64,000 nt of DNA from Pecten maximus (Eukaryota), in NCBI RefSeq assembly GCF_902652985.1, contig NC_047015.1, forward strand, positions 59,892,001 to 59,956,000. The letters are read 5' to 3'. Shown piece by piece: positions 14,500 to 22,800 of the stretch. Within the stretch, counting starts at the first letter, position 1. The number at the start of each line of letters is the position of its first letter. Under the pieces are notes generated by a model. It saw only the letters and a list, made by a program, of their open reading frames with translations. It did not search any database and had not been told where the DNA came from. Made by a program: the position numbers and the translations under genes.

Positions 14500-15150
14500 A
14501 TACCTTCATACAGTCTTCTGACTGCGAAATCCATCGACGTCGTCAGCCAGGACCACCTCTCACTGGGCGTTTCGACTCCTATCCTGGAACGCCCTAAAGG
14601 TGGCGCGTCGACAGTGATTGGCCAAATCACTGCCCGTCGATGGATGGCTTCCAGCTCTTGTCCTCCCTTCTCCACCAAAGCCAGCTGGACGACTTCTCTG
14701 CTGTTGTTGCCAGTCGTTGTACAGCTGCCCTTCGGTCTTTCCCCCGGATGCCTACAGCAGCAAACATCCTCCACATGGACTGTGCAGGGAATCCTCTACA
14801 CCCCATCTCTACTGGCATGACCCACACACACCATCCTTTTGCTCTCACGTCATCAGTAAGGTTGGCGTACTTCTCTCTTTTCCGTTCGTATGCCTCTTGA
14901 CAACGCTCCTCCCAGGGGACAGTAAGCTCAATCATTATCATCCTCTTCCCTTGCTGTGACCAGAGTAGAATATCTGGACGAAGGTTGGTTTGGACGACCT
15001 CTGGAAAAGCCAGTCTTTGTCCCAAGTCAACCCACATCTCCCAGTTCTGAGCTCCGTCCAGTATCCCTCTCTGGTGTGCTGTTGTTTTGCTGCCTGTTTC
15101 TCTTGATCTTACAAAGTTGATGTAGGGTTGTTGTATAAGTGGCTTTTCTA
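14500..15150 (-). mobile_element. 3' fragment of an RLE-type (HERO-like) non-LTR retrotransposon
   Basis: RPDILLWS...IELTVPWEE...ERK..KY...PVEMGCRGF is a PD-(D/E)XK restriction-like endonuclease. Stop at 14627, followed by a structured 3' UTR. Confidence 0.82.
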
Positions 15151-19800: not shown

Positions 19801-22800
19801 CTATCACAGAACCAATCACCATACATTTATAACTAACAGTGCTATCACAGAACCAATCACCATACATTTATAACTAACAGTGCTATCACAGAACCAATCA
19901 CCATACATTTATAACTAACAGTGCTATCACAGAACCAATCACCATACATTTATAACTAACAGTGCTATCACAGAACCAATCACCATACATTTATAACTAA
20001 CAGTGCTATCACAGAACCAATCACCATACATTTATAACTAACAGTGCTATTATTACAGAACCAATCACCATACATTTATAACTAACAGTGCTATCACAGA
20101 ACCAATCACCATACATTTATAACTAACAGTGCTATCACAGAACCAATCACCATACATTTATAACTAACAGTGCTATTATCACAGAACCAATCACCATACA
20201 TTTATAACTAACAGTGCTATTAGACACTCTTTCTAACAAAATATTATTACATAATACTTTTATCCACCTTTTTCAGTGATATAAAAACATGATAATATAA
20301 ACACATATATACCTGAATCGTATGTTTTATTTTCTTTCTCAGTTCAGCCATCTGTCGTTCAAATGTTCCCTTTGTAAGGACATTCTTATTTGTTTTCTGT
20401 TGGGCGTCTCCACGGGTGACAATCGTGTCTCTCCTGTTAAACACAATATTTATAGACTTCAGTCAATTTTAACATCAATAAGTCTTACTGTAAATGTGGA
20501 TATTTATGCTAATTACGTCCTTTTGATCGCGATAATTCCCTCTACACGTATTATATTGATATCAATTTGCATTATCTCAAACTACCAATGAAGGTGGATT
20601 GTTTCGAAAATTACCCCCACACATATAGTTTATAATCATATAAAAATCGTGAAATTGACCCCCTGCGAAAATATCCACATTTACAGTATTAAGAAAAAAT
20701 AAAATATTCAAAGTACATGTATATAATTATCTAATGAGTCTCATACAGTGAAGACATGGATACATAACTAGGTAATAGTTACATAACCAGGTAATAGTTA
20801 CATAACCAAGTAATAGTTACATAACCAGGTAATAGTTACATAACCAGGTATTAGTTACATAACCAGGTAATAGTTACACAACCAGGTAATAGTTACACAA
20901 CCAGGTATTAGTTACATAACCAGGTAATAGTTACATAACCAGGCAATAGTTACATAACCAGGTAATAGTTACATAACCAGGTAATAGTTACATAACGAGG
21001 TAATAGTTACACAACCAGGTAATAGTTACATAACCAGGTAATAGTTACATAACCAGGTATTAGTTACATAACCAGGTAATAGTTACATAACCAGGTATTA
21101 GTTACATAACCAGGTAATAGTTACACAACCAGGTAATAGTTACACAACCAGGTATTAGTTACATAACCAGGTAATAGTTACATAACCAGGCAATAGTTAC
21201 ATAACCAGGTAATAGTTACATAACCAGGTAATAGTTACATAACTAGGTAATAGTTACACAACCAGGTAATAGTTACATAACCAGGTAATAGTTACACAAC
21301 CAGGTAATAGTTACATAACCAGGTAATAGTTACACAACCAGGTAATAGTTACATAACCAGGTAATAGTTACACAACCAGGTATTAGTTACACAACCAGGT
21401 ATTAGTTACATAACCAGGTAATAGTTACATAACCAGGTAATAGTTACACAACCAGGTAATAGTTACATAACCAGGTAAAAGTTACATAACCAGCTCTAGG
21501 TCAAGGTCACACAGACCTGGGTAGTTCACCTTTTTTGGAGCTCTGACAAAAAAACTATTTTCATCGATTTATTGGAAACTGCGTATGATCTTTTTTGGCA
21601 TAATAATGTGCGAGTGAACCGTCACCATCCTCGTAAAAATATCTCTGGATCTTTTTTTCTAAAAATGTTGATTTTGGACATGTGAAATTTGAACAATGGA
21701 TTGACACCCAGCTGGTGAACACTGTTAACCAACACTACACTATTAATTACCTAGATTTACCTGGACTACACTGACTATATTCACTTTATGAACTGTATTA
21801 TCTACTATACAAAGGAGTAAATATGCCTACCGGCAATCGTCATAGAAATGGAAGTACAAAGTCAGGATCGGAAAAAACCATTGATGACAGACTAGAGGAA
21901 ATAACTGAAATGCTGTCCAATGTAGTTACTAAGCAGTACATGGAGGAAAGATACAACAAGCTAAAGGAAGCTATCAGAGCAGAGAACAAACAACTGGTAG
22001 AGGAGCTGAAAGGAAGGGTCTTTGATCTTGAGACAGAAAATGAAAATTTACGCCAGACTGTTAGCAGTCTTGAGGGAAAAGTTGCTGAACTGCAAAATTC
22101 GAATGAAATCATGGAGGCGAGGAGTAATGATTTAGAGCAGCATGGGAGGAAAAACTCACTCAGAATAAATGGCCTGGAAGACTCATCAGACTCGGAAACT
22201 GCTGAAGACTGTGCTAAGAAAATTGTAAAGTTTGTGAATGAAAAACTTGATGTGCAGCTTACCAGTTCTGACATTGACATTGCTCACAGACTAGGAAAAT
22301 TTAACAAAGACAGACCCAGAAATATCATTGTGAAATTTGTGCGCCGTTTCAAACGAAACGAAGTGATAAAATCCCGGTACAAGTTGAAAAAATCTGGTAT
22401 TACTATTTTCGAGGATCTCACAAGGACCAATCAAAGGATACTGGCGGATGCTTACAAACTTCCCTGTGTCAAAAACTCTTTTAGTATCGACGGAAAGCTT
22501 TTTGCCATACTATCAAATGGAAAAAAGAGGAGACTTTCACTGGGTACTCGGCTCACCGAAAGTTTTTTGAAGAATGATTCCAACTTCCAGTAGACTTAAT
22601 TTTAATGGATAATATATCGGTATGGAACTTTGGCACCACGGTGCCGCCAGGAATTAATTCCTCCTGGTTAATACCGATAACTTTTGACAGTGTTTGGAAT
22701 TTAATTGGTAATATAATGTGTACGCGTGTATATGTGTGTCTTTTCTTAGTGTGTGGCATGTTTTCCATGTGATTACGGGACATACATTTCTGTAACACCA

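Follow-up and report, generated by a model that had tools for sequence, protein, structure and literature searches.

The 3′ end of a HERO-like retrotransposon in the genome of Pecten maximus carries a split variant of a known hammerhead ribozyme, which is conserved across a group of retrotransposons and is described here as new. Judging from sequence and from the way copies of the element are joined, we consider it fairly probable that the motif self-cleaves after position 14588 and rejoins, by which partial-tandem transcripts would become RNA circles of unit length that are copied beyond one full turn. Catalysis by the motif, taken by itself, appears highly probable, and we have hardly any doubt that the conserved fold is real.

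Position and fold of the motif

In the window (the whole stretch of 64,000 nt that was analysed), the motif occupies 117 nt of the minus strand, 14645-14529. Letters, coordinates and strand were rechecked against the window, and the sequence, position and strand quoted in the original prediction all agree with it. The 11-bp closing stem, 10-bp hairpin, 8-bp and 6-bp stems and the pseudoknot described there are borne out as well, and the 117-mer folds better than its shuffled versions (z = -4.3, 0 of 200 shuffles equally good). P0, P1, the 8-bp helix and stem III are nested, and stems I and II are pseudoknots. The features are as follows.

15134-14501, minus strand: 5′-truncated copy, 634 nt, of a 3694-nt HERO-like RLE non-LTR retrotransposon
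15134-14627, minus strand: C-terminal fragment of the ORF, RLE region, with the stop codon (14629-14627) inside P1
14645-14635 with 14539-14529, minus strand: P0, the closing helix, 11 bp (fold and parse); its 3′ strand begins immediately after A9
14634-14610, minus strand: P1 hairpin, 10 bp, spanning the stop codon and adjoining P0 and stem II without an unpaired linker
14609-14605 with 14578-14574, minus strand: stem II, 5 bp, closed by the pair G10.1-C11.1, with a mismatch at 14606 in the window copy
14603-14596 with 14560-14553, minus strand: interaction helix, 8 bp, joining stems I and II (fold and covariation)
14594-14582, minus strand: block S, made up of a stem III strand (14594-14589), H17 (U, 14588) and a stem I strand (14587-14582)
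between 14588 and 14587, minus strand: predicted cut, after H17
14581-14579, minus strand: linker of 3 nt from stem I to block G
14578-14565, minus strand: block G, made up of a stem II strand (14578-14574), GAAA (14573-14570) and a stem III strand (14570-14565)
14594-14589 with 14570-14565, minus strand: stem III, 6 bp (parse)
14587-14582 with 14552-14547, minus strand: stem I, a pseudoknot (parse)
14560-14540, minus strand: 3′ block, made up of an interaction strand (14560-14553), a stem I strand (14552-14547) and CUGAnGA (CUGACGA, 14546-14540)
14528-14501, minus strand: 3′ tail with a small predicted hairpin, ending at the recurrent insertion end, 87 nt from the predicted cut; position 14501 would be the priming point

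The strands are ordered as stem II strand, interaction strand, block S, block G, interaction strand, and stem I with CUGAnGA. The link from A9 to G10.1 is not a direct bond and passes through P0 and P1: from A9 the chain enters P0, the partner strand leads straight into P1, and P1 leads straight into G10.1. Under a strict parse (P0 of at least 7, P1 of at least 6), these joins have zero unpaired bases in 21 of 40 clusters.

A descriptor of core plus stems has one match in the 64-kb window, at 14588, versus two in 2.56 Mb of shuffled windows. Rfam gives no relevant match around the locus at E values up to 10, nor on five long loci at the gathering score. The Rfam models are unable to follow the split strand order. 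Neither Rfam nor the published search patterns could see the motif, so that many copies probably lack annotation.

The original prediction held that a canonical stem II is missing. This is wrong, since the family has a 5-bp stem II formed with the upstream strand. At 14606, the window copy differs from its family by a private T>G change; of 30 aligned copies, 28 have T, one has G and one has a gap. With the family letter T, 14609-14605 pairs with 14578-14574 directly before GAAA, and thus stem II exists. Position 10.1 (14609) is G in 97% of clusters. In the 26-row alignment introduced below, 96.8% of the stem II cells are paired and double changes occur in 3 of its 5 pairs. Two other placements, with the GAC after CUGA or with the strand after CUGAnGA, are ruled out, and covariation supports the upstream strand; no more than 4 of 68 rows would allow a canonical stem II directly behind CUGAnGA.

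Conservation and covariation

At least six diverged HERO-like families in the P. maximus genome carry the motif, namely the window's family (A) and at least five further ones (B-F). A protein search of the genome gave at least 150 matches (150 of 422 candidates scored), and families B-F were defined from 60 diverged matches that were picked because their identity was low and they covered the C-terminus. Each of these families has the motif, with stems of differing sequence. Outside loci were gathered by a protein-led scan, independent of the RNA, which yielded 79 metagenome loci from 340 relatives and 4 others (L224-L227). The latter are HERO-like sequence in prokaryote assemblies and probably represent contamination by host DNA. 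No relative turned up in the viral contigs searched.

Among 74 outside tails (9 of the 83 loci were dropped for tails shorter than 170 nt), the descriptor matches 48, versus none of 1480 shuffled tails, 74 reverse complements and 72 upstream windows. A covariance model matches 76 of the 83 outside loci, 18 of the 76 being training loci. Among the seven that it misses, L172, L180, L225 and L226 stop before or inside the motif, L211 satisfies the descriptor, L220 is disrupted, and no motif was seen in L227 (32% identity).

Covariation was examined in a MAFFT alignment of 26 rows, which leans towards the structure because the rows were chosen for parsing well and the structure was derived from them. 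In this alignment, 91.9% of cells are paired. Shuffled versions give 65.1%, with none of 500 reaching the real value, and sliding the partners gives 34-45%. Double changes are found at 33 of 38 pairs and are spread over all six helices, including 11 of 11 pairs in P0, 3 of 3 in stem I, 5 of 6 in stem III and 4 of 6 in the interaction helix. The last is the least regular, with only 63.7% of its cells paired in a model-fitted alignment of 81 rows, where its registers vary. Hammerhead stems I, II and III surround the core, and all of them covary.

The core itself is nearly fixed in the 81-row alignment. G5, A6, G8 and A9 are invariant (78 of 78 rows), as are A13 and A14 (77 of 77); C3 is kept in 73 and U4 in 75 of 78 rows, G12 in 74 of 77, A15.1 in 76 of 78 and U16.1 in 75 of 80. 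All four letters occur at N7. H17 is U in 35, C in 26, A in 18 and G in none of 79 rows; when the position is left unconstrained, 0 of 40 clusters have G there. All 11 core positions are intact in 30 of 36 sequence clusters, and the other 6 have a changed core position; most exceptions look like single decayed genomic copies. One cluster (L190, L191) has U at position 3 in both members and retains G8. Within the window's family, the core is barely less mutated than the rest (8/319 versus 128/3045).

The original prediction had placed the motif in the hammerhead register and had proposed that, in homologues, the core should stay fixed while the stems covary. Core letters, an unpaired H17 that is never G and covarying stems support the register, and the two alignments give the proposed pattern, with the two pseudoknots included. 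Core conservation and the absence of G17 can also be structural and not catalytic in origin.

The host element

The family unit is 3694 nt long. With 40 of 349 candidates scored, the 918-Mb genome holds at least 43 matches to the window's element. In the long copy L032, Pfam finds RVT_1 and zf-RVT within an ORF of 1147 aa. Further motifs lie at aa 62, 927 and 1031, which we take to be the N-terminal zinc finger, the CCHC zinc knuckle and the RLE. The ORF is 49% identical over 1094 aa to the Tetraodon polyprotein AAN12398, and its identity to the pufferfish proteins AAN12398 and BAC82598, presumably HERO/Zebulon elements, is 44-49%. A database protein that is identical over the searched region is labelled P. 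maximus, and relatives are labelled as bivalve, lancelet and fish. An RLE/HERO-like host, as originally predicted, is supported by the long ORF, by its RT and RLE and by the pufferfish relatives; we call the element HERO-like by protein similarity, not by an RT tree.

The element has a single ORF with RT and a C-terminal CCHC motif and restriction-like endonuclease. It has mostly no target-site specificity, the flanks of 27 copies being unrelated past two letters, and no target-site duplication longer than 5 nt was found in copies with both ends. Of 73 outside loci, 42 have the stop codon inside P1, 26 have it in P0 or upstream of P0, and 5 have it downstream. Where it is inside P1, a terminating ribosome is expected to unfold the inserted helices, which offers a possible switch.

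Several features of individual copies and relatives were observed in addition. Copies L104, L144, L020 and L132 have lost part of the ribozyme or of the junction through internal deletions, which lie at short shared words. A long minisatellite with a period of about 27 nt (L032:5160-7143) lies upstream of the long copy. Distant ORF relatives (P0087, P0088, P0090, P0098, P0099 and P0101) have extra peptidase-type Pfam domains, PF02902 and PF00443.

Relation to known hammerhead ribozymes

Types I, II and III are three-way junctions without a pseudoknot whose blocks are circularly permuted, whereas the HERO motif is neither. The original statement that its strand order is not type I, II or III holds: the block order is S-G-C and the stems cross. 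In the accessible text of Eckert et al. 2023 (PMC10085705), the hammerhead is split into blocks S, G and C and six orders are listed, among which the non-circular type SGC (HRIMA-1) cleaves in vitro and has, besides an additional interaction helix, a linker of about 3 nt from stem I to stem II. The same text takes CUGAnGA to need its stem II strand within 1-2 nt, a distance that the search patterns demand, and gives at most 1-2 nt between CUGAnGA and the stems in every known hammerhead alignment. SGC examples, according to that text, did not turn up in the genomes of known organisms.

The HERO motif shares with type SGC, as far as the available description of the latter goes, the order of block S, short linker, block G, interaction strand and stem I with CUGAnGA, the extra helix joining stems I and II, the core letters, and stems I and II as pseudoknots. 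For the placement of the interaction helix, the comparison is with SGC-1 as interpreted from the oligos in the accessible part of PMC10085705. The two differ in that block C is broken in the HERO motif, the stem II strand and the neighbouring interaction strand standing 5′ of block S. A9 reaches G10.1 only via P0 and P1, so that CUGAnGA does not have its stem II strand within the usual distance, and the motif sits in chromosomal retrotransposons. Thus, the HERO motif is an SGC hammerhead into which a closing stem and a hairpin are inserted between A9 and G10.1, and its split order is outside the six permutations listed in the accessible text of PMC10085705. The two helices between CUGAnGA and G10.1 may distort the core.

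If the motif cleaves, it adds a hammerhead topology to the six permutations so far held to be possible, and it places a non-circular permutation in animal chromosomes instead of environmental sequence. The literature search, in which subscription journals and Repbase Reports are poorly covered, returned no hammerhead, ribozyme or circular intermediate described for the HERO clade. It returned no report of SGC-type ribozymes beyond PMC10085705, whose supplementary alignments could include split variants. A prior report of a HERO ribozyme may exist.

Head-to-tail stubs and 3′ ends

Nearly all complete copies examined have a leftover of their own tail in front. Among 19 matches with an intact 5′ start, 18 have the 3′ end of their own family (a stub) head-to-tail in front of them, though L128/L129 and L231/L234 may each be a single locus. 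In the first search, 14 of 18 5′ UTR matches reach the start, 13 of these with an own-family stub and an exact join, and the other 4 begin further in; L140 reaches the 5′ UTR start and has no recognisable stub. A second search, with family E, gave 29 matches, and all five that contain the 5′ UTR have a stub. The stubs are 23-1079 nt long. Twelve of the 18 cross the predicted cut, and none begins within 10 nt of it. By family, their lengths are as follows.

Family A (the window's), cut 87 nt from the 3′ end: 23, 74, 119, 146, 277, at least 714, and 802 nt
Family B, cut 101 nt from the 3′ end: 215 and 512 nt
Family C, cut 93 nt from the 3′ end: 51 nt
Family D, cut 142 nt from the 3′ end: 328 nt
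Family E, cut 88 nt from the 3′ end: 38, 38, 233, 365 and 1079 nt
Family F, cut 89 nt from the 3′ end: about 40 and 264 nt

Four of the seven family A stubs are at least 145 nt long, which gives room for a second whole ribozyme. In L131, stub and unit can be told apart by single-letter differences. All 28 exact copies of the 20-mer beginning at N1.1 continue upstream across the predicted cut; the shortest copies are 96 and 118 nt.

In 5′-complete copies, the 3′ tail is followed without a gap by the next unit's 5′ UTR. The 3′ ends are ragged, and the adjoining flank matches the start of the 5′ UTR at +1 in 20 of 27 copies (p 3e-11) and at +2 in 18 of 27 (p 0.001), with no match beyond +2. Other families have a like tendency, judged by eye. 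Because this bias ends after two letters, a preference for certain targets could underlie it, or a short overlap of the termini. The head-to-tail join is also present in the outside contigs L145, L148, L160, L169, L206 and L212, where, these being short-read contigs, it can be an assembly collapse. Contigs from two of four sequencing runs guessed to be RNA (X1, X9) bridge both the join and the predicted cut; we set them aside as evidence, since contigs collapse tandem DNA and circles alike.

Two observations at these junctions stand apart. In L148 (1660-5504), two ribozymes about 70% alike lie head-to-tail 3.7 kb apart, which makes the contig either a hetero-tandem built from two families or a chimera of the assembly. 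The start of the 5′ UTR (the first ~120 nt after the junction, as in L128) has a shared motif and a run of small hairpins in all families and in outside contigs, the motif being found also in L136, L137, L139, L143, L084, L148, L160 and L212. This region, which on a circle would be just 3′ of the priming point, is a candidate binding site for the element's protein.

A proposed circular RNA template

The stubs, together with copies that are continuous through the cut, point to a template without a discrete 5′ end at the 5′ UTR and without a lasting break at the cut. A circular template accounts for both, and a circle copied beyond one unit would explain the stub before nearly all complete copies. 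The original prediction considered constitutive cis-cleavage unlikely, because sequence 3′ of the site had been retrotransposed. The observation behind this stands, as 28 of 28 copies cross the site. The reasoning is weakened by the partial tandems, since a religated circle, itself made by cis-cleavage, gives the same continuity.

We suggest the following course. P0 and P1 would stack, A9 and G10.1 would stay adjacent, and the core would fold normally. Read-through transcription of a partial-tandem copy would yield an RNA in which two ribozymes cut, releasing a 3694-nt monomer with a 5′-OH and a 2′,3′-cyclic phosphate. The two ends of the monomer can rebuild the whole ribozyme through four helices of 30 bp (P0, II, interaction and III), and these would hold the ends for ligation, by the reverse reaction or by a host ligase. 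The fixed 3′ end, now internal to the circle, would then be the starting point of target-primed reverse transcription. The majority of copies would end early; any that get beyond the 5′ UTR would re-enter the 3′ end and so regenerate the stub and a second ribozyme. As far as its accessible text goes, Cervera and de la Pena (PMC4209133) proposed the same circle scheme for Penelope-like elements. In its widest form, the proposal is that HERO elements are autonomous target-primed (LINE-type) elements that replicate via covalently closed RNA made by a seventh, split hammerhead permutation, with clamped ends favouring ligation, the 5′ and 3′ UTRs forming one continuous control region on the circle, and internal priming. 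We hold this wider claim to be evenly poised between true and false.

Other readings keep the template linear. An active ribozyme could cleave in the upstream stub and so make the 5′ end of the message, releasing it from a host transcript and perhaps allowing cap-independent translation, while the downstream ribozyme is kept off by a ribosome or the element's protein and stubs come from template jumps or longer tandem sources. R2 reverse transcriptase reportedly copies across non-continuous templates. In line with such a course, a ribosome could unfold P1 in the 42 of 73 loci with the stop codon there, and the available texts describe R2 RNA as processed by 5′ ribozymes (PMC13708176) and self-cleavage as able to drive cap-independent translation (PMC13725137). 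However, stubs should then pile up at 87-142 nt, depending on family, and the 18 observed do not. The junctions are exact with no added letters, and stubs would shrink every generation unless regenerated. We consider this reading unlikely. Alternatively, the motif could be a silent, ribozyme-derived scaffold that the protein recognises to choose the template and fix the priming point, with tandems arising by template jumping between linear RNA ends that share a short terminal overlap. The unbroken continuity over the predicted cut would fit this, as would the short fixed distance from the cut to the priming point (87-142 nt from the 3′ end), a large insertion at A9 that is without precedent in the hammerhead literature examined, and the role of structured 3′ UTRs in R2 template recognition (PMC13708176, in its accessible text). 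Such a scaffold must nevertheless explain why, between families with a protein identity of only 43-64%, all stems are exchanged but G8, G12, A9, A13, A14, U16.1 and the NUH rule persist; the protein and its site could have drifted together. On balance, a silent scaffold seems quite improbable to us.

A further conceivable reading is that the ribozyme acts mainly between molecules, halves of two transcripts assembling and monomers being ligated into linear multimers that are then copied. The four helices between the fragments can pair in trans just as in cis, a two-product cofold reaches about -19 to -22 kcal/mol without the pseudoknots, and L148 joins two families head-to-tail. But intramolecular closure should win at low RNA concentration, all 18 stubs in the P. 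maximus genome are of the same family as the unit behind them, and L148 may be an assembly chimera; we give action between molecules very little credence. That the hammerhead likeness is mere chance in a structured 3′ UTR would agree with the missing Rfam match. Against this, the descriptor matches 48 of 74 real tails and 0 of 1480 shuffled ones, and the core is fixed while the stems covary over 36 clusters. Chance is refuted as far as sequence can refute it, and we put practically no weight on it.

Comparison with other retroelements

The circular-template reading that we favor would give a mechanism for the partial-tandem structure of the HERO-like clade. With other members of that clade the element shares a single ORF, an N-terminal zinc finger, RT, CCHC knuckle, RLE and dispersed insertion. 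A Tetraodon element of the clade (Zebulon), ascribed to Bouneau et al. 2003, is said to have a tandem structure, and the tandem habit of the clade is probably already known. HERO is named only in lists in the accessible parts of two 2026 reviews (PMC13580325, PMC13708176).

Partial tandems are described for Penelope-like elements in the available text of PMC8557442. The likeness includes partial-tandem insertions in which a full copy follows a truncated one, a repeated part that contains a hammerhead (in Penelope-like elements, the pseudo-LTR), and the proposal of circular RNA and more-than-unit copying (PMC4209133 and PMC8557442, as far as accessible). Penelope-like elements differ, according to the same partial sources, in having a GIY-YIG endonuclease, a telomerase-like RT and hammerheads that are of type I or minimal and dimer-forming, whereas the HERO element has an RT with restriction-like endonuclease and a predicted monomeric, split-permuted hammerhead. 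Its ORF contains the RLE motif, and Pfam finds only RVT_1 and zf-RVT in it. The idea of a circular template, raised for Penelope-like elements, becomes testable here in a simple single-ORF system with a predicted 117-nt ribozyme.

Retrozymes, in the accessible text of PMC6765202, likewise have hammerheads in terminal repeats and propagate through circular RNA, circles that for HERO are a prediction. They are non-coding and non-autonomous, and in plants LTR-type with target-site duplications; the HERO element, in contrast, is autonomous, 3.7 kb long and single-ORF, with no duplication found. R2 is also an RLE non-LTR element with a self-cleaving motif that processes a co-transcript, as HERO cleavage is predicted to do. 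However, the R2 ribozyme is HDV-like, lies at the 5′ end and sets the 5′ end of a linear template (PMC13708176 and PMC13580325, in their available parts), whereas the HERO motif is a hammerhead within the 3′ UTR that copies read through. RLE retrotransposons are under development for gene insertion, and internal priming on a circle would differ from the mode of R2.

Elsewhere in the window, at 21775-22593 on the plus strand, lies a 272-aa open frame with a coiled-coil region, for which no Pfam family reaches the cut-off. We assume that it resembles ORF1 of another LINE type.
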